Shown here piece after piece: positions 36,504 to 48,097 of a DNA stretch of 64,000 nucleotides. This DNA is from Escherichia coli. Its GTDB lineage: Bacteria; Pseudomonadota; Gammaproteobacteria; Enterobacterales; Enterobacteriaceae. Position numbers and translations under genes: made by a program. The first letter of the stretch is position 1. Each line of letters begins with the position of its first letter. The stretch lies in NCBI RefSeq assembly GCF_003018255.1, contig NZ_CP027440.1; one strand, written 5' to 3'. The notes below the pieces were generated by a model. The model was given only the letters and a program-made list of their open reading frames with translations, was not told the origin of the DNA and ran no database searches.

Positions 36504-39500
36504 TTACTGGAAGCAGGTCACCAGACCCGGTTTATTTTTTATTAGCGTGATACTACAATCCTGCGCTCCAGTACCTTCGTCCATCCCACACTGTTGAGAG
36601 GACAAATAAGGAAAACTGGGTGAAGACGGCCATCCCAGTGAATTAAAAACAGTATGCAACAACTCTAATTCATTGTATGTCGGTGCATTTTCTATGCTGC
36701 CACACTGCCTTGCGATATCCCATTTACTGGCATCAATGATATGTGCAGAAGCCCAGTTTTCGTAGTTAATAATCGGTGAGGATACGGGATTAGCCCCGGA
36801 CGGCAATTCCGTCGTTAACAACGGTCGATGTAGCGATTTACTAGTCACCACTACCGTGTCTGCCATATGTCCCCAAAAGTGCGCCGATGAAACATTTGGG
36901 CTGGTTGGCACCGTAAAAATAGCATCCAGCGTGTCTGTCGCGGAAGCGTAATTAGCCAGAGTAACCGTCAGTGGCATTTTATAACCAGGGGTATTATCCT
37001 GGCGGAGCGTAAAACTTGCCGTCCCATCCGCGCCTGTCATGCCACTAATGGTATTACCGCTTTCACTCAGCGTAACAGCCGAACCTGATAACGGCTGAAC
37101 GACGAGATCGTCCATCGCCACTACATTGCCATACAACGTTGCCCCAGCGTTACGCGGCGATGCCTCACCACGTTTCAAAGTAAATTCAACATTCGGCACC
37201 GTATTCCCGGCGCTGTCTTTCACCGTCACGGTTACGGACATGGCTTCGCCTTTTTTCACTTTCGCCGCCTGAGTGGCTGCATCAAACGCTGTTGAGGTAA
37301 GTGTGACGCTGGAAACGGTTGAACGCGCGTTAGCCAGGCAAGGCTGAAATGATTTTGTTGAACCCGTATACAGCGTGCCATTTCTCAAATCAACCGACTG
37401 GTCTTTACCATCGGCGGATTTATCCTCTGCCCACCAGGTGTAATACGCAGGCCAGCCAGTTTCAGTGACAAACGTGTTATTCGGATAACGCGCAGACAAC
37501 GAACTTAAATCATTGAATAGTGGCTGCCTTGCTACTTCACAAGGGCTCACACTCGCATCTGATTTCTGTGTTGGGGTAAAGTACGGCCAGTCTTCATTAT
37601 TGTTATTGATCTTGCCGACGCCAGAAGTCGATGTCAGTTCACTCCACAATTTCGGGCGTTCAAATACCGCACCATTCACTGCCGTCAAGGTTGCTGGCAT
37701 ATGCCCCCAGTAGTTAGCCTTCGCAGAATCCGGGCTGGTCACTACCGTGAATATCAGGTCCTGATTAGCCGTAACCTGCGGATTTCGCGCCAATGAAGCT
37801 GTAAACGGCGTTACCAGACCGACGGTGTTATTTTGGGTAACGTTGAACGTTATCGTGCCATCACTGCCGGTGAAGCCGCTCCATGCCGACGTATTCTGGT
37901 TGAAGGAGATACGCGCCGATGTTGGGGTGACTTCATCTAAAATGAGATCATCTACGGTATTGGAGGATACAGAGATCCCTGAACGGCTTTTCGCCTGCAC
38001 GCGCTTGAGCGTAACACCTTCGCCGCCAACAGGATTACCATTGGCATCTTTGATCGTCACCACGATGGGAAGCATCTCACCTTTTTTCACAGATGACGTG
38101 GGGGTACCACCATTGCTGGCAGTTCGGCCCTCATCATAGGCAGTCGATGACAGCGTAAGGCTTGCTGGTGCCGAATGTGGCTGCGTCAGACAGAGCATTA
38201 AAGCGTATCCATTAATAGTCGTCGTCGATTGTCCCGTTTTCAAATTAATGACGCCGTAATACCACGTCAACGCGTCAGTGGTGCTCATTTCATAAGTCCA
38301 CCAATTTCCACTTCCGGCAGTTATAGGCAACCCCAAATCTGTCAGTATTGTCCCGCCTGGATGATCATTATATAGCCCCTGTAACTCATTGAGACGCGGC
38401 TGATACTCAACCGGGCAATCCGGCGTAACTTTATTGGTATAAAAAAGGTATGACCACGACTCATTATTATTACTTACCGAGGACCCCAAGGTCGCTTCTG
38501 CTGCCAGTAGCGGTCGTTTAAAGGTCACCCCCGCCCTACTGGTAAACGTGTCGGGCATATGACCCCAGTATTTTGCTTTCGGTGAGTTCGGACTGGTTAT
38601 CACAGTGAAAATAACATCCATCGTGGCACTTTTTGTGGTGTCGCGCATCAATGTTGCAGTGAGCGGAGTTGCCAGCCCATAAGTCTCGTTTTGCGTCACA
38701 TCAAAAGTCGCTTTACCATCACTTCCTGTCGTCAGAAGTGCCTGTGCCCCATTATTATAGAGTGACATGTTTACTCCGGCAGGGGTGACCGGCACGATAG
38801 TAAGATCATCATACGTAGAATCTAGCCTGTTTTTTGCACGATCCAACGCAGTCCCGCGTATGAGATTAAAGTTTGCGCCTGGCAACAGATTTCCTCCGCT
38901 ATCCCGCACAATCACCGTCATCCGGATCGCCGTACCTTTCGCCGCCGTTGCACTAGGGCGACCATCGTTGCTGGCCGTTTTCTCCGCATCCAGTGCCGTG
39001 GAGGTCATCTCTATAGAAGCTGCCACTGCATGAGGGTTTACCAGACAGGACACAAATGCCACGGTGTTTGATAATGCCCTGGAGCTTGATCCATTCGATA
39101 AATTAATAGACTGATCGTACCAGACGTTCGCGTAGGCAATTTTATCGTAAGCCCACCAGGTGTTAGTCAGCGGAAGGCCTAAATCGGTCCCTATCGCACC
39201 ATTAGGATGTTCACTGTATAACTCTTGAAATTCGCTTAATAACGGTTGATAAGGTTCGCCGCAGTCTGATTTGCTGACATCATTTTTTGCTGCCGTATTC
39301 AAAGAAAGCCATGATTCATTATTAGCCATGGTTGACTGCCCCGCTGGATGCTCGGCAGTAAGCAATGGCCGCTTAAAGGCAATTCCCGACCGGGTAGTAA
39401 ACGTTTCAGGCATATGCCCCCAGTAACTTGCCAGTGGCGTATCCGGGCTGGTTATGACGGTAAACATGACCGGTAATTTGTTGGATTCTATCGTCAGCTG

Positions 39501-42500
39501 ATACAACTGGGCGTACATATTGGTTACCAGGCCCATAGAATCATCTTGTTTTACCGTAAAGGAGGTAGTCCCGTCCGCGCCAGTCACCCCATAAAGCAGG
39601 CTTGAAGAACTATTCATCCTCGCAGAAGCGCCTGCCGCGTTAATTACCGTAATCGACTTATTTATCATCTCGGCATTTTGACGGTTCTTCGAGCCTTCAC
39701 GTCTGAGAATAAAGGGGACATTGGGCACGCTATTTCCCTGCGTATTTTTAGTCACCACGCGAATCACCGCGTCTTCGCCTTTTTTCACTTTCAACGCACT
39801 CAAGGTGTCGTCAACTTTGACAAATTGCGCCGTATCATTCGCCTCAACAATGATCTGACTGGCAACGGCGACAGGCGTGGTCCGGCAGCTCAGTAATGCA
39901 CCACCAGATGAGGGCATCTGCGTTTCATCTCCTGTCTTCAGCGAAACGACATCATACGTAAAGGTTTGAGTGAACGTATCTGCAACGGTATTCGAGATAT
40001 AGAACCTCGACACTGGCCAGCCAATAGCATCATGTAATGCGCTACTCCCCTGGTGCGCATAAATGGCCCTAAGTTCATTGTCAGTTGGAACATACTCCGC
40101 GCCACAACCATTTATCGAGGTATCGTTAGCCTGGCCCGACGGGAACGTAGACCAGGCCTCCCCCTCTTCCACCAGGGTACCGATACTGGTGGTAGCACTA
40201 TTCTCGTCCCTCAGCAAAGGCCTTCGATAAATAAGACCGTCATCGCCTGTCGCCGTTTCAGCCATATGCCCCCAGAATTTGGCTTTTGGCGAATCCGGGC
40301 TGGTAAGCACCGTAAAGACAACGGGAAGCGTCGATTTAGTGCTGCTGGAGGAATCCAACGCTGCCGTGAGTTCTGTTTTTAGCCCGGTAGTCTGGTCTTG
40401 CTTCAATGTGAAAGTGGTGATGCCATCAGCCCCCGTCACGCCATAAATAACCAGGGTCGTTGAAAGAAAATCATCTTGAGTATTTCCCCAGGCATCCGTT
40501 ACCGCCAGCGAAGCAATCGACGTCGTAGTTGACACATTGGCCCTGTTCACGCTGGTGTTTCGTTTGAGGGTAAATGCGGTATTTCCCACAGGGTTACCCT
40601 GCGCATCTTTAGTGGTCACTCGTAATACGGCTTCTTCGCCTTTTTTCGCTTTGACAACATTATTCGTACTGTCAAATTTTGTGGGGTCTGCAGCTTCAAG
40701 AACAATTTGGCTTGCCTTAACAATCGGCGTCGTCTGGCAGGTAAGCAGTTCTTTTGTGGCAGATGGAATTATCGAACTGGTGCCTGAACTGAGATTGACG
40801 GCCTTGAAGTCACGCTGTTCCAGGCTACTACTACCTGTTGTGCTGGAAAGGTAACTTGAGGCGACGGGCCAGCCCTGAACCGTTTTCATCGCATTGCCGC
40901 GGTTGGCTTCATACAATGACTCCAGCCCGGCCTGGGAGGGAACATATTCACTACCACAACCATTAGAGGCTGTGCTTATAGCCTGGGTTTGGGTAAATTG
41001 CGCCCAGTCTTCATTCTCTTCTGCAATCGCTGTTCGACCCGACGTACTGGATAACTCTTTCAACAATAATGGGCGTTTAAAGACCGTTCCATCTGCAGCC
41101 GTCACTGTTTCAGGCATATGCCCCCACATTTTCGCCTTATCGCTGTCCGGGCTGGTGACAACGGTAAAAATGGTATCGAGGGTCGCTTTTTTCGTTGTGT
41201 CTGAATAGAGCGCGACGGTCAGCGACGTTTTTGTGCCATGGGTATCCGGGCGGGTAATAGTGAGAATTTTAGTGCCATCGCTGCCGGTCATCGCGCTGTA
41301 TGCTGCGGCGGTATCATTGAGCGAAGTTTCATCCGCCAGGCCACTATTGATCACAACCGGCGCAACCAGCGCATCACCGCCACCGGCAATGTGTTTTTCG
41401 TTTGATCGGGTATAACCATCGCCACGCTTCAGCGTAAAAGGCATATCACCCAATGGATTGCCCTGAGCATCTTTTACCGTCACCTTCACCTGTAGCGTTT
41501 CGCCTTTTTTCAGCTTCGCCGCATTTGCTGCCGCGTTCCACTGCGCCGGGTCCACCACTTCCAGCGTAATGCTGCTGGCAGGATTGTTAGCCGTCGTCAG
41601 GCAACTGACATAAACCGCCGTGCTACCGCCAACGGTCCGCGCGCCATCGTTGAGGGCTATGGTGTAGTAATGCGGCACCTGATCCGCGGGCGAACTGCTC
41701 CAGTAGGGCTGACGCTGCGTTGGCCAACCGTGTACCGTTTGAACGGCGTTACCGCTGTTAGCATCATAGAGCGCGTTAAGCTGGGAACGGCGTGGGAGCA
41801 TATTGGCACCACAGCCACCTTTACTGGTGCTGGAAGTGTTGGCCTGGCTAACGCGCGACCACACTTCGTTATTTTCCGTTAATGTGCCGTCCGGGCTGGA
41901 CACTTCCGCAGCCAGCCGGGGTCGGGCAAAGGTTAATGCATCGACGGTAATCGTCTCATCCATATGACCCCACATCTGCGCGCCAACCGCATCCGGACTG
42001 GTGAGCGTAGTGAAAATCACATTGTAATTAACAGTATTGGGAATATAGGAGTTTACAGGCGCAATATTCAGCGGCGTCGCTAAGCCCACACCTTGCGGTT
42101 GCTTAATTTCCACAGTAGCAAAACCCTGCGCATCCGTAGTACCGGCATAGACTAAAGACGGTTGCGATGTTCCGTAGAGTGTGCCATTCATCTCGATTGC
42201 GCCGCGGGTTGGATCATCAAAACCTGTAGTCTGCCCCTGACGATTTTTCCCCATATCTTTAGTGATGGTGAACGCGGTATACGGCACGGGCGCATTATTC
42301 AAGGCATTAAAGGTGCGTACCGTCATGGTAATCGTTTCACCCTCTTTAGCCTGCGCTCTGCTGCTTGTGGAAACATCATGATCGGTGGTCGCAGCAATCT
42401 GGGCGACCATCTCATTGCCCGAACAAGAAAGGTAGTTTTGCTTAAAGCCGGAATAGGTGTCGATGTTGCCCGTGGCCAGGTTCACCGACGCGTGCGACGT

Positions 42501-44558
42501 CTCTTCCACCGCACTAAGATACGCTTTTTGCAACGTTGGCCAGCCATATTCGGTGCCGATGACATTGGCTGGATGTGCGGCAAACAAACTGTGCAATGAG
42601 CTTTGGCTCGGAATATGACCTAAACCACACTCAGCCTGCATACTGCTATTCTGATCAAACAGCGCCCAGTCTTCGTTATTTTCCCGCACTGCTCCCAGTT
42701 CGTTGTCGGTTTCATCCGCCAGCCGTGGGCGTTTAAAGATATTATTCGCTTCAATAATGCCTAACATATGTCCCCACATCCGCGCTTTGTCGGAATCAGG
42801 GCTGGTGATCACCGTAAAAATAACGTCTTTCTCATCCGAGGCGGTAAAATCACTGCGCATTTTCGCGGTGATGTGTGTTTTCACCCCCACGCCGCCTGGC
42901 TGGGTCAGCGTCAGAGAGGCCTCTCCGTTAGCATCAGTGATCCCTTCATAGGTATGCGCGTCAACTTTGCGAACGTTACTGCCACCATCAATTTGTACCG
43001 GATGCGTCTCCCACGCAGCGTCAGTTTGATTCTTACGGTTAACACCGTCATCCAGATGCAGCGAAAAGTAGTAGTAAGCCAGCGGCTGATCGTTGTTCTT
43101 GCTATCGGTAATCGTCAGGCGTAAAGAAGCCTCTTCCCCCACCTTTACTTTCATCGCTTTTATCGTCGAATCATAACTGCCCGGCGTCAGTACCAGCTTC
43201 GGTTCAACATCGGGCGCTTCTTTATCGACACAGCTCACAATAAACGTCGTATCGTCCGGTTTTTGCGCTTCGCTGCGGTTCGAAACATCCGCCGCATGGT
43301 GCTGCCCGCTCATCCCCGCCAGTGATGACCAGTAGTAGTTACCCTGCATCGGCCAACCAGCCACATCCTGCACTGACGTTGGCACCACCGTCGCCAGCGC
43401 ACCGAACTGACGCATTCCGGGCAAAATGTCGCAATGTTTATCCGCACCACTCCAGGTAAAGGTGGACCAGGTTTCATTGTGATCGTTAACCGTACCGTCT
43501 TCATTATCGACTTCCGCCGCCAGTTTTGGTCGACTAAAAGTGTAATCACGGGCCTTCAGCGTATCGGGCATATGACCCCACATTGTGGCCTGCGGGACAT
43601 CCGGGCTGGTGAGGACGGTAAAGATCACTGCCGTTTCACTGGTCTGAGCAATACCCGCGAGGCTCGCGACCAACGGCGTTTTTACACCAGGGGCGTTGGC
43701 CTGGGTGACCGTAACCGTGGCAACACCATTCGCATCGGTAGTACCACGATATTCCGTCGCGGTGGTGGTTAATTCGGTCGTGCCCAGTTTTACCGGCGCA
43801 GTATTGTTCACTACACCCTGGCGGTTTTCAGCATCTTTGCGTTTGATAACAAAAGGAATATTCCCCACAACATTACCGACGCAATCTTTGGTGGTGACCG
43901 TTAACGTGATACTGCCGCCAACCGTCGTTTTCGCCGCACCGGAGGATTCGTCATAGCCCGCGGCGCTGACGGAAATAAGGTCACCCTGCGCGGGCGCAAT
44001 CTTCAGCGTCACTTTCTGATCGGCGAGGGTCAGAACACTTTCATAGGGATAGCCCGTCGAGGTAAGTAGATATAACAGCGGCATGGTCTGCTGGGGGTCT
44101 GGCTGCGCCCAGGCGATCAGCGAACGCCCGGCAAGGCCCTGTGCGCAAAATGAGCGATCTGCGACTGGCTGTGGGTCCAGTAAGGTGTCCGGCGTCGCGG
44201 CATCCGCCCAAACTAAAGATACTGTCGGTGGCGTTTGGTTTTCCCAACGTGGTGTGGCAATGATATCGCCTTCTCTGTCTTGCGGGTTGGTGACGAGCAA
44301 TTTAGAGACGCTAACATCCGCGCTGAATTCACTCGGTTTAGCGGTAAACGCTACCTCATGCGTCTTTGCAGGATCCAGAAAGACACTGCCCTGGTAGACG
44401 GGTATGCTGGCACTGTCGGCGGTGGGCACGGTACCGTTAAATTCGCCGACCGTATCTGAAGAGTCTTGCCATGCAGATTCTGCCCATGCCCCCCCAGGCA
44501 GCATTGCGCTTATCAGCAATGCGCAAAACACAAGGATTTTATTCAGGGTCAGGGACAT
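36504..44558 (-). CDS. ratA: Giant repetitive surface protein, RatA-like (signal peptide plus nine ~270-aa Ig-like/lectin-like repeat units)
   Basis: 2684-aa ORF with ATG at 44556-44558 and GGAG Shine-Dalgarno; signal peptide [26 protein letters not shown]; nine units each carrying ...FTV(I/L/V)TSPD...WGHMP... and a downstream Cys pair; T/S/N/G-rich. Last gene of the sinH-sinI-ratA arrangement. Confidence 0.8.
36750..43650 (-). repeat. Nine tandem, diverged ~0.80-0.86 kb intragenic repeat units within the ratA-like gene
   Basis: The DNA motif CATATG(A/C/T)CCCCA (encoding WGHM on the minus strand) recurs at about 36865, 37698, 38557, 39411, 40263, 41115, 41962, 42766 and 43569. Confidence 0.85.
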
Positions 44559-44678
44559 GACAGAAACTCCACCGGTTGTTAAACGGACGCTTGTCGCATC
44601 AACATATTTTGCTTAATCCGGGATTAAGCAAAATATGCGGAAACAGCATTCCCTTGCGGGAATGCTGCTGAGTACGCG

Positions 44679-45656
44679 TTATTTGTGTTTGTAAATAATG
44701 TGAAGTTTGTACCCCTGTACCCCGTCGCCGTTGGTCGGGATGGTAAGAGCTTCTTTACCATCGCGCGCAGGGCCGTTAAGGTTGGTTCTGGCGTCTTCGT
44801 TGGTCGCAGGGATGACCAGATTGTTATTATCGAAGCTTGAGTTGACGATACCACCCGAGGTGCCGAGCTGTTGGCTGCTGCCAGAAAGTACCCAACGGAA
44901 GTCATAATTGGCGGTAACGTCAGCATCGGTATCCGCATCAAACTTGCCATTTTTGTTCTCATCCGAGTACAGTTTGGCCACGTAGGTTTTGCCAAGTTCG
45001 ATTGGCGTACTGCCGTTGATAAGGTTGATACTGGTACCATCAACAAAGATGGCGACTTTCAGGTTCTGGTTAACTACCGGCCCTGGCGCAACGTTGTCGC
45101 TGTCGCTTCCGCCGCCGCTGGCAGTGGAAATGTCATAAAGATGCAGCGCAGTCCCGACGTTTGGCGTACCGGTCTGCGTGGTCGGCGTAATTTCAATACC
45201 GATATAACGACCACGGTCGTCATCGGTAAGAGTGTAACTGGTCACCTTCGTTGCCAGCTCTTTCGGATCGCCCCCCTGAGCGTCCTTGTAGCTCATCCAG
45301 CGGATAGTATCGATAGTCTTTGCGTTATCGCCCAATCCCCCAAGATCCACGTCGCCTTCGGTATCACCAATTTCCCAACTTACGGTTAATTTATCACCCG
45401 AGTAAAGACGCTTGTCCGTTTCACTGCCTGTCGGGCGAGCGCCTTTTAGATCAGAAGTCAACGTTACATGGTCGGCATCTGTCGTAGCGCTTCCCCCTTC
45501 CGAATAGAGCCACGGAATGGTTCCCTGGAAAATATTGGTTTCGCCGCTGTCGACCCAGGCGCTTTCTTCCGCCAGCGCCACAGGTGCCACACAATAACCT
45601 GCCAGTGCCAGCGCCAATGCGATCCGGGTCAGACCGCGTCTTTTATCCTGCTTCAT
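44679..45656 (-). CDS. sinI: SinI-like secreted protein (signal peptide; C-terminal domain paralogous to the SinH C-terminus)
   Basis: 325 aa; ATG at 45654-45656 with AGGAGA Shine-Dalgarno; signal peptide ...ALALAGYCVAPVALA; C-terminal ~110 aa aligns with the SinH C-terminus (LVIPATN, GDGxQGY motifs). Confidence 0.7.
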   Translation of the reverse strand: MKQDKRRGLTRIALALALAGYCVAPVALAEESAWVDSGETNIFQGTIPWLYSEGGSATTDADHVTLTSDLKGARPTGSETDKRLYSGDKLTVSWEIGDTEGDVDLGGLGDNAKTIDTIRWMSYKDAQGGDPKELATKVTSYTLTDDDRGRYIGIEITPTTQTGTPNVGTALHLYDISTASGGGSDSDNVAPGPVVNQNLKVAIFVDGTSINLINGSTPIELGKTYVAKLYSDENKNGKFDADTDADVTANYDFRWVLSGSSQQLGTSGGIVNSSFDNNNLVIPATNEDARTNLNGPARDGKEALTIPTNGDGVQGYKLHIIYKHK

Positions 45657-45710: not shown

Positions 45711-47888
45711 TTATTTTTTGGTATACAGCACGCGTAAACCGTATCCCTGCAAGCCATCTCCCGCTTGTGCGCCATAGGTTTGCGCTGCTTCGCGGTTAGT
45801 GGCCGGAATCACAATGTCCTCATTGGAAGAGTTCGCCTGTGCACCCACTTCACCATTGATGCTCTTGCCGGTAAATTCCCACTTGTAGTCGTACTGCGCC
45901 ATCTCTTCGTCAGTCAGTTTTTCGACCTGCTGGAAGACACCGTCTTTATTGCTGTCACGCCACAAAACAAATCGATAAGTGTTGTTGAGCGGCAGCGGTT
46001 CTTTATCTTTACCTATCAGGTTGCTGGGTTTAGCTGCCCCCACACGATAGATAAATGCATTTAGCCCACCAATTTCTGCCCCGAGGAAAGTGACATCCAC
46101 ATAGTTACTGTCGTCGTAGGGCGCAGCTTTTGCTTTCCAGCGATAGGTGCCGGGTAAGGTACTGGAGAGGGTGACAGTGCCCTTTTCTTTATCTTGTTTA
46201 GCGATAAAAACGCAGGGGTTGTCGGTCGAGCAAGGCTTGTTGGTTAACGTCACTCGTTTGTCCTGCGCGTCGTAAAGCCGCGGCGTGAGGTTATCTTCCG
46301 GCAGCGCATCGCCATTGCGGTCGGTGTTATCGCCAAAGCTGTCGGTTACATCGAGATCCATCACCACACCATCAACGCCATCTGCCTGGGCGCTGGCTTC
46401 GTGGCTGTGGTTGTTCTCTTCCGGCACGTTCGCGATGTTATTAACAATCAACTCAATTTTACGGTCCTGCTGAACGGTGATTTCCACCACACCAGAGTTC
46501 TGTCGGTTGCCCTTTTCATCTTCCAGTGCCAGACGTACTCGCCAGGTATTGAGTTTTTCTTGTTCGGCTTTGTCAGAGCTGTACTGCCAGGCGGGCAGCA
46601 CCAGGTTCCAGTGGTTATTGTTACCCTCTGTCAGGGTATTCTCTTTGATAACCGGCATAACCAGCGTGCGGGCAGCATTGTTTTTCGCCTGCCATGACGC
46701 AGCGACAATTTTGTAGTGGTGGTTGATAAGCGCGTTAATGGTCCACTTACATTTTTCCAGCCCGACCGCCGCTTCAGGCGTATCTTTAATGACACACTCG
46801 GGGTGTTCGTTGGTGGCATCCGCTTTTAACCACAGGGTGACATCAAGCGGATCTTTTTCTTTGTATTCCAGAACAATAAAGTTATTACGCTCAACAAAAT
46901 CATGACGACTGCCCATCAACGAGTGAGCCGCTTTCACTTTATCGCTATCCAATTGATCTTTTAGCGGAACGCCGAACTGATAATTAAGAGTGGCATTAAT
47001 GCTGACATCGCTGTTATCTCCGGTCCCCGCTTTATAGTCCGCCCCAACGGTTAGTAATGGCACCGGTTGATAATTCAGTCCAAGTGTTACCGCGTAGGGA
47101 TCTTTCTCCAAATTATCCGTACCAAAAAGGGCAACTTCATCGCCGTAATATTGCTCGAAGACAACTTTGCCCCCCAGTTGCGGATAAGAAGGTAACCAGG
47201 CTTCGGCGCGAATATCCCAGCCGCGCGCAGGACGCTCCTCATAAAAATCGAAATCTTCGGAGTCTTTCCAGTCAGAAAGCGGATGATAATAGTTGCCAGA
47301 GAATTTTAAATAATCAGTCCACGCTTCGCCGCCTAAACCTAAACGGCGATGTCCTCGGGTAAAATCATAATCATAAAATATATTCCCGCCCAATAACCAT
47401 TCATTAAAATTATGTCTTACCCCAAGACCAATATTCCCGATTGTACGATCTTCTTTTCGCTGCGCAGAAAATTGACTGAAATAAACAGTGGTTTGATTAT
47501 CGTACCAGGGAACAAAATAATCGATGGAACTGCCATCCAGATCGCCGCCCTGGCCAATGGAGAGGTTCGAACGGACCTTACCGTAGGGAGAGAGAGTGTC
47601 TTCAATATAAGATTGTGCGGTTGAGGTGATTTGACTTTGCAGATAGCTTCTGGCCTGAGATTCCAGCGCCTCAGGGGTCAAGTTTTCAAACCCTTGCGTG
47701 GCGGAGTTGATGATGTAATCGGCTCCGCGCTCTTTCAGCGATTTACCCTTGTTGGTTTGTTCATCCTGCTGTGCTGCCTGGCTACCTAAATCAGGTAACG
47801 ATTCGTTTTGCTTAACATTTATCTCTGGTGCCGCGAAAGCAGCACCAGAGATAAATGTTAGAATAATACAGCGTTTCCATCGCAGCAT
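45711..47888 (-). CDS. sinH: Intimin/invasin-family inverse autotransporter (SinH-like)
   Basis: ORF track starts at a TTG (47918); probable ATG start at 47886-47888 (MLRWKRCIILTFISGAAFA, signal peptide) with AGGGA Shine-Dalgarno. N-terminal region with alternating aromatic beta-strand pattern typical of the intimin/invasin beta-barrel, followed by Ig-like passenger domains. Confidence 0.8.
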   Translation of the reverse strand: MLRWKRCIILTFISGAAFAAPEINVKQNESLPDLGSQAAQQDEQTNKGKSLKERGADYIINSATQGFENLTPEALESQARSYLQSQITSTAQSYIEDTLSPYGKVRSNLSIGQGGDLDGSSIDYFVPWYDNQTTVYFSQFSAQRKEDRTIGNIGLGVRHNFNEWLLGGNIFYDYDFTRGHRRLGLGGEAWTDYLKFSGNYYHPLSDWKDSEDFDFYEERPARGWDIRAEAWLPSYPQLGGKVVFEQYYGDEVALFGTDNLEKDPYAVTLGLNYQPVPLLTVGADYKAGTGDNSDVSINATLNYQFGVPLKDQLDSDKVKAAHSLMGSRHDFVERNNFIVLEYKEKDPLDVTLWLKADATNEHPECVIKDTPEAAVGLEKCKWTINALINHHYKIVAASWQAKNNAARTLVMPVIKENTLTEGNNNHWNLVLPAWQYSSDKAEQEKLNTWRVRLALEDEKGNRQNSGVVEITVQQDRKIELIVNNIANVPEENNHSHEASAQADGVDGVVMDLDVTDSFGDNTDRNGDALPEDNLTPRLYDAQDKRVTLTNKPCSTDNPCVFIAKQDKEKGTVTLSSTLPGTYRWKAKAAPYDDSNYVDVTFLGAEIGGLNAFIYRVGAAKPSNLIGKDKEPLPLNNTYRFVLWRDSNKDGVFQQVEKLTDEEMAQYDYKWEFTGKSINGEVGAQANSSNEDIVIPATNREAAQTYGAQAGDGLQGYGLRVLYTKK

Positions 47889-48097
47889 GCACTTTCCCTG
47901 TGACAATGATACAGTCAAAAATAAGCTTTAATATTGTATCCCTGATTATTCAGAAAGGCATGTCATAAAGAATAAATATACTCTTAATTATTTAAATTAG
48001 TGATTTCACTCAATTACATTAGTTATTCCACTAATAACAGATTGTTTTACCATTCACATATTAAATATAAATGATAAAACAATATATTCACATGATA
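47889..48097 (-). promoter_or_regulatory. AT-rich upstream/promoter region of the sinH-sinI-ratA cluster
   Basis: ~210-bp spacer between the yfgJ stop and sinH start, visibly much more AT-rich than flanking coding DNA; no other promoter-sized gap before sinH. Confidence 0.5.

Follow-up and report, generated by a model that had tools for sequence, protein, structure and literature searches.

SinI shares an N-terminal motif with RatA-type proteins and a C-terminal domain with the inverse autotransporter SinH: a candidate bridging subunit of a three-gene adhesin system

Between xseA and der, the 64-kb stretch of Escherichia coli DNA analysed here (the window) carries three minus-strand genes, which encode the intimin-like inverse autotransporter (IAT) SinH, the small barrel-less protein SinI and a giant RatA-like adhesin, and the locus raises the question of what SinI does between two neighbours, each of which it resembles at one end. 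The sinH-sinI-ratA genes constitute the 'ila' cluster of ExPEC, a relative of the Salmonella CS54 island (PMC12928451, PMC12525524), and SinH is a colonisation factor of ExPEC and Salmonella as well as a vaccine candidate (PMC9937491). How substrates are recognised in ZirT-like 'type Ve two-partner' systems has been a question since 2008: Gal-Mor et al. named no recognition motif for ZirS, which is devoid of a TPS-like domain (PMC2270342), and the barrel is seemingly plugged (PMC4943183). A conserved tag on the partner proteins would matter because ZirS has no such recognition domain.

The features of the locus are listed in Table 1. The sinH product scores 1486 bits against the NCBIfam model inverse_SinH (cutoff 999), and its barrel matches those of invasin (4E1T) and intimin (4E1S). 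The mechanical open reading frame of sinH begins with a TTG at 47918, ten codons upstream of the RefSeq ATG (47889-47918); translation from the ATG gives a normal signal peptide. Immediately downstream of sinH, after a gap of 54 nt, lies sinI, whose product is named 'SinI family autotransporter-associated protein' in RefSeq, flanked in E. coli by sinH and the RatA-like gene, and belongs to the NCBIfam family NF040711 (partner_SinI), the model of which it matches over residues 7-322 at 333.4 bits (cutoff 165). The RatA-like protein is built of BIg21 and lectin-like adhesion-domain repeats (Pfam families in the Salmonella orthologues). The window is a piece of E. coli chromosome with 99.9% identity to NZ_AP027254 over 3.6 kb, a match is present in 1,700 of 5,426 complete E. 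coli genomes, and the synteny recurs in 24 genome loci of a species-level genome collection.

Table 1. Features of the sinH-sinI-ratA locus in the window, and small third genes of related operons (located within their own loci).
Feature	Location	Strand	Description	Basis or remark
sinH	45711..47888	-	intimin-like inverse autotransporter, 725 aa as annotated	RefSeq agrees
SinH distal (third) passenger domain	45714..45998	-	residues 641-735 in the numbering of the 735-aa ORF	paralogous to SinI C-terminal domain
sinI	44679..45656	-	325-aa barrel-less partner protein	NF040711 partner_SinI match
SinI signal peptide	45570..45656	-	residues 1-29	translation; cleavage after ALA placed by the -3/-1 rule
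SinI N-terminal partner motif	45504..45569	-	EESAWVDSGETNIFQGTIPWLY, residues 30-51	in all SinI orthologues and distant SinI-like proteins
SinI central Ig-like domain	45123..45473	-	residues ~62-178, ZirU/AIR9-like	AF2 beta-sandwich
SinI C-terminal beta-sandwich	44682..45089	-	residues ~190-325	AF2 pLDDT 85-96; BLASTP to SinH
Two strong RNA hairpins	44602..44668	-	sinI-ratA intergenic	MFE -52.1 kcal/mol, z -5.8 vs shuffles
RatA-like giant adhesin	36504..44558	-	2684 aa	NCBIfam PRK15316, 5883 bits
RatA N-terminal partner motif	44424..44480	-	residues 27-45	right behind signal peptide 44481-44558
Small third genes	L023:1758-2864, L025:11429-12691, L026:11304-12470, L029:11112-12440		motif plus lectin/Ig tip	

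SinI itself is tripartite, with a RatA-type N-terminus, a central Ig-like domain and a SinH-type C-terminus. The initial annotation had compared only the two ends and missed the central domain, which aligns with the ZirU_fam model (NF040485) at 1e-7 and gives a weak IG_AIR9 match; SinI as a whole falls outside the ZirU family, since only this domain aligns and its 32.3 bits lie under the family cutoff of 100, and it is no member of the ZirS family either. Giant proteins from many phyla (for example P0161, P0164 and P0168) contain up to 27 copies of the same type of Ig unit. Within the domain (residues ~90-175) an invariant acidic loop, 'GDTEGD.D', may bind calcium. Searches with the full protein returned no significant match in Pfam and no IAT_beta or other barrel match in NCBIfam or Pfam, and PDB sequence searches with SinI or a SinI profile yielded no relative with a solved structure. 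The signal peptide of SinI is unusually conserved and carries an A-G-Y-C signature, with L13, A18, G19, C21, P24 and A28 invariant across genera in the orthologue alignment, and 'LAGY[CSAT]' is retained in distant SinI-like proteins; the signature is not a canonical lipobox. Unlike that of SinI, the signal peptides of RatA proteins are not conserved.

The C-terminal likeness to SinH, which had been noticed from the sequence at the outset, is borne out by database models. Residues 218-325 of SinI align with SinH 641-735 in BLASTP at 37% identity (E 2e-13), the SinH C-terminus matches positions 197-299 of the partner_SinI profile at 5e-21, and SinI in turn matches inverse_SinH at 2e-11. This similarity is already published and embodied in NCBI family models: it was documented by Kingsley 2003, as stated by Heinz et al. 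(PMC4943183), and repeated by Goh et al. for IatB, the E. coli SinH orthologue (PMC6714894). The SinH segment concerned is the vaccine antigen known as 'Ig-like domain 3', aa 602-724 (PMC9937491).

The N-terminal resemblance to RatA is, taken pairwise, marginal. The E value is no better than 0.011, and part of the alignment consists of hydrophobic residues of the signal peptides, as would be expected of a chance match or a by-product of the signal-peptidase context. The comparative data nevertheless make the resemblance solid. In every full-length SinI orthologue the signal peptide is directly followed by W-x(2-4)-[ST]-x-x-T-[GA]-x-[ILF]-[QNE]-G-T-[VI]-P-W, and the motif is also present in Salmonella RatA and RatB (SinI, NLKSGQWQIVSEQTGTIQGTVP; RatA, LLKGGTWQELNSVTGAVNGTAP; RatB, RSSGAWQELTEQTAAINGTPP). 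The sample was extended to about 30 SinH-type operons, made up of the 24 syntenic loci and the loci of distant SinI-like representatives and spanning Escherichia, Salmonella, Citrobacter, Buttiauxella and non-enteric metagenome contigs. In these, every barrel-less protein bears [ST]-x-[ST]-[GA]-x-[ILFV]-x-G-[TRA]-x-P at its mature N-terminus, and the SinH-type autotransporter never bears it in any locus examined.

A motif HMM trained on SinI orthologues only found its best match in every Rat-like protein at the mature N-terminus, at up to 27 bits, while all other ORFs among the 441 locus ORFs stayed at or below 5 bits. In the 64-kb window the same profile gave 31.9 bits for SinI and 11.7 bits for RatA, the next best being 5.6 bits. 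Profile-profile comparison of SinI with RatA-type proteins by hhalign reached an E value of 1e-4 over exactly 21 motif columns, and no significant match between the two remained after removal of the motif. With some 30 operons showing the motif in the same place and with this gap in scores, an origin by chance or from the cleavage-site context is effectively refuted. Both similarities claimed in the initial annotation thus proved significant, the C-terminal one already in pairwise alignment and the N-terminal one at the profile level. The wording of the motif had to change: the literal 'ESAWxDS' is lineage-specific, but the core T-x-x-[IF]-x-G-T-x-P, usually with a W ahead of it, is kept in orthologues including those from Salmonella. 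That the motif is simply the strand with which each Ig repeat begins was considered and rejected: the internal repeats of the IAT lack it, and in SinI it ends ~15 residues before the Ig domain enters its first strand. One 1081-aa protein (L034:6432-9677) has a second, internal motif copy, SPVIGTVQGTAPVIRS, at residue ~257, besides SDTVKGRAP at its N-terminus. The motif apparently is undescribed so far, and so is the relation between the two ends of SinI set out below; full-text searching of the literature, which did not cover Kingsley 2003, Prehna 2012 and Shea 2022, returned no mention of either.

SinI and Rat motifs from the same genome are more alike than pairs taken across genomes (BLOSUM 20.4 vs 15.1, permutation p 5e-5), in a statistic that a few clades drive and that is not phylogeny-corrected. 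The states common to both proteins are lineage-specific: 'EF[QN]GT' in the window and Pseudocitrobacter vs 'xI[QN]GT' elsewhere, 'SAG' vs 'STG' in Lelliottia/Buttiauxella, where SinI and its partner change alike, and 'GRAP' vs 'GTxP' in both proteins of the non-enteric operons. The RatA of E. albertii is the closest overall to that of the window (67%) and yet has the other motif type, as does its SinI, which is not of window type either. At the DNA level the motifs of sinI and ratA in the window are identical at only 28 of 57 positions (49%), and the shared serines are encoded by AGC in sinI and TCT in ratA. This low identity and the different serine codon families rule out gene conversion between the two genes as the source of the shared motif; the likeness is maintained by selection. 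No SinH column separates loci of the two motif types, so the co-evolving partner of the variable part would be SinI, RatA or something else, and SinH as a co-evolving receptor of the variable motif residues finds no support.

The combination of ends seen in SinI recurs well beyond its close relatives. In five divergent operons (Buttiauxella, L029 and three metagenome contigs) the C-terminus of the small partner matches the extreme C-terminus of its own IAT, with E values from 3e-21 to 4e-5, and in three of the five the N-terminus of the small partner matches that of the big downstream protein (2e-15, 3e-14 and 0.004). The rule still holds in the non-enteric operons L033 and L034, where the small partner and the IAT share a terminal domain of another kind, AIR9-like and Cys-containing. 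The term 'mosaic', understood as a recent recombinant, does not survive this comparison: the whole family is defined by this architecture (NF040711, residues 7-322), and operons at a great distance show it as well. A head like that of the big partner joined to a tail like that of the autotransporter is a conserved architecture.

The general layout read from these operons is an autotransporter made of a barrel, an Ig stalk and a terminal domain, a small partner made of the motif, an Ig domain and the terminal domain of the autotransporter, and a third protein that begins with the motif and ends in an adhesive tip. In Lelliottia, Buttiauxella and one further genome the third gene encodes only a small protein of 368-442 aa, in which the motif is combined with a C-terminal lectin or Ig domain of intimin/invasin-like type; in effect, the adhesin tip is here a polypeptide of its own. 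The SinH system has in common with intimin and invasin the barrel family, the Ig-domain stalk and the C-type-lectin-like tip. Intimin and invasin are single chains, however, whereas SinH-type operons spread the stalk and the tip over two or three polypeptides, and the operons of Lelliottia and Buttiauxella put the intimin-like lectin tip on a separate, motif-bearing small protein. The presence of lectin-like tips on the third protein of related operons favours an adaptor role for SinI. The initial annotation had proposed a ligand-binding tip in the C-terminal domain and, with it, a possible role for SinI as soluble competitor of the SinH passenger; these proposals are less consistent with adhesive tips on the third protein.

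The distant operons also bear on a descent-based explanation, in which SinI and RatA have a homologous N-terminal module (motif and first Ig domain) from a common ancestor, and the motif, as the part of it conserved best, acts as an intramolecular cap with no shared partner. There, the small protein is collinear with the big one over the initial 110-220 residues of the latter, past the motif. Where the two first domains end, hhalign gives a weak collinear match, 'T-TG-P' (E 0.005, probability 7%). In the window and the enteric orthologues, by contrast, profile similarity ends at the motif, and lineage-specific states common to paralogues that have diverged in DNA need a common constraint.

Structure prediction speaks to the same point in both directions. 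In the AF2 model of the SinI monomer, made from a 26-sequence alignment, two beta-sandwiches (~62-178 and 190-325) are confidently predicted, residues 1-61 have very low confidence (pLDDT 25-30), and the motif is predicted to be disordered and is not packed onto SinI's own domains, against what a cap would require. A second AF2 model was made of a fusion of the SinH passenger (355-735), mature SinI and RatA 26-78 joined by 30-residue Gly/Ser linkers, with an alignment of 28 paired rows and 20 SinI-only rows. Its overall pLDDT is 78.7, with 86-89 in the SinI motif region and 70-83 in the RatA peptide, and short beta-bridges are predicted at equivalent residues of the two motifs (V35-D36 and F43-Q44 in SinI, Q31-D32 and E39-N41 in RatA). 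The loop 95-101 of the SinI Ig domain, disordered in the monomer, is ordered in the fusion alongside the motif; this hints at packing of the motif within SinI itself, in line with a cap. A partner need not be behind the gain in confidence of the motif: the alignment was deeper (48 vs 26 rows) and the signal peptide had been removed, either of which could account for it, and the fusion model is no more than suggestive. Foldseek searches with both models returned only generic tandem Ig/FnIII proteins and intimin D00-D0. Weighing these points, we consider an ancestral module with a capping role unlikely.

With about even confidence, we favour a reading in which SinH, SinI and RatA form a three-gene adhesin system of ZirTSU type, with SinI as its small bridging subunit and the motif as a partner-recognition or assembly element. 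The initial annotation had suggested a sorting or partner-recognition signal, and this is still the most reasonable reading of a motif that is conserved across genera, predicted to be disordered in SinI alone and co-variable between SinI and RatA within genomes without DNA conversion. SinI would be exported by Sec, and the N-terminal motif (W-x2-4-[ST]-x-x-T-x-x-[IF]-x-G-T-x-P) would be the recognition or assembly peptide of the barrel-less partners; we infer for it a role in export, in surface attachment or in both. Because SinI bears both a RatA-type head and a SinH-type tail, it would couple RatA to the SinH anchor. A report that IatB/SinH mediates biofilm formation without the downstream gene runs counter to such a bridge (PMC6714894).

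The analogy with ZirTSU has been drawn for SinH/SinI before (PMC4943183, PMC6714894). As in ZirTSU of Salmonella, the IAT gene is followed by genes for Sec-dependent barrel-less proteins with Ig domains homologous to the IAT passenger; a feature not shared with ZirTSU is the third protein, a lectin-repeat adhesin of 2684 aa. ZirT is needed for both ZirS and ZirU, and secretion of a partner in dependence on the IAT has been shown for ZirS/ZirT only (PMC2270342). Heinz et al. proposed SinI and Rat-like proteins as substrates of the IAT in a two-partner model (PMC4943183).

Both precedents would also fit a motif that is purely an export signal, comparable in function to a TPS domain, with SinI and RatA as independent substrates of SinH and the SinI C-terminal domain as a duplicated passenger tip that serves as a soluble decoy or competitor. 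Such a signal would be expected just where the motif lies, at the place where a post-Sec recognition element is first exposed, and on all barrel-less proteins while absent from the IAT. The resemblance to type Vb TPS extends to a conserved element that follows the signal peptide on diverse, often giant exoproteins co-encoded with an outer-membrane barrel protein. It ends with the size of the element (~20 residues, against a 250-residue beta-helical TPS domain), with the NPNGI/NPNL motifs, which are lacking here, and with the barrel, which is IAT_beta and not Omp85/POTRA; no TPS-domain match was obtained for the N-terminus of SinI or RatA in Pfam or NCBIfam, which leaves them outside TpsA. An export signal as the whole explanation would leave unexplained why the small partner always keeps the terminal domain of the IAT, even one of a different sequence family, and why the variable residues of the motif change together in SinI and RatA without a matching change in SinH; a further problem, discussed before, is that the barrel is filled by its own linker (PMC4943183). 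On balance it appears somewhat unlikely.

The partners might alternatively leave the cell by another route, for example type II secretion, and be tethered to SinH by the motif or the shared domains only afterwards. The barrel-less invasin-like protein InvL is a T2SS substrate (PMC9245377), and tethering would be compatible with the bridge architecture. InvL, however, is a lipoprotein, whereas SinI and RatA have ordinary signal peptides, and strict co-encoding with the IAT in all loci examined points to dependence on it, which makes a separate route very improbable.

The bridge model can be carried further. Chaperone-usher pilins have a short N-terminal extension with alternating hydrophobic residues around a conserved Gly, such as PapA '...TFNGTVV' and FimA '...TVNGGTVHF'. 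This extension may resemble the motif of the SinH-type operons (I/F-x-G-x-V-x-W), both being borne by subunits of Ig-like fold and following a head-to-tail logic. SinI cannot be counted among these pilins, as no chaperone or usher genes lie between xseA and der, and, unlike theirs, its Ig domains are predicted by AF2 to be complete and confident on their own. In an extended form of the model, which we regard as quite unlikely, SinH-type operons would encode a non-covalent modular surface fibre, with the IAT as anchor, SinI-like adaptors that possibly polymerise head-to-tail, a giant or lectin protein as tip, and on every barrel-less subunit an N-terminal docking strand that acts in a donor-strand-like or motif-to-motif manner. 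If true, type V secretion would include an assembly principle like that of pili, with the motif as its address tag.

The SinH-type system and the similarity between SinI and SinH were known already, and it is the N-terminal motif and the head/tail rule that are apparently new. A selected 20-residue tag on all partners is a concrete, mutable handle on substrate recognition, and likewise the rule by which the head and tail are copied. Together they could help to detect systems of this kind in genome sequences and to single out the giant adhesins that rely on an inverse autotransporter.

Several minor observations concern the locus itself. The two intergenic hairpins between sinI and ratA are adjacent, with stems of 11 and 17 bp; no T-run follows them, and the terminator scan made no call there. 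They may tune the expression of ratA relative to sinHI, with transcripts attenuated or stabilised between the two.

Among Escherichia strains (L009, L010, L022 and L019 compared with the window), the identity of SinI runs through 100, 85, 68, 48, 46 and 42% and that of RatA is 53-67%, while the adjoining SinH stays at 85-88%. This pattern of sequence divergence suggests allelic replacement or diversifying selection acting on SinI/RatA across Escherichia. In some strains the locus appears, from its broken reading frames, to be decaying to pseudogenes: in E. coli SCPM-O-B-8794 (L005:11472-17899) the RatA-like gene is broken into ORFs of 254 and 1881 aa, and in E. coli E69 (L022:7358-10315) sinH is split. 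Finally, a 3.1-kb contig (JAIJJM010000381.1) in a genome labelled 'MAG: Collinsella sp.' (Actinobacteria) encodes protein 98% identical to the E. coli sinH-sinI-ratA junction and is almost certainly a mis-binned E. coli contig.
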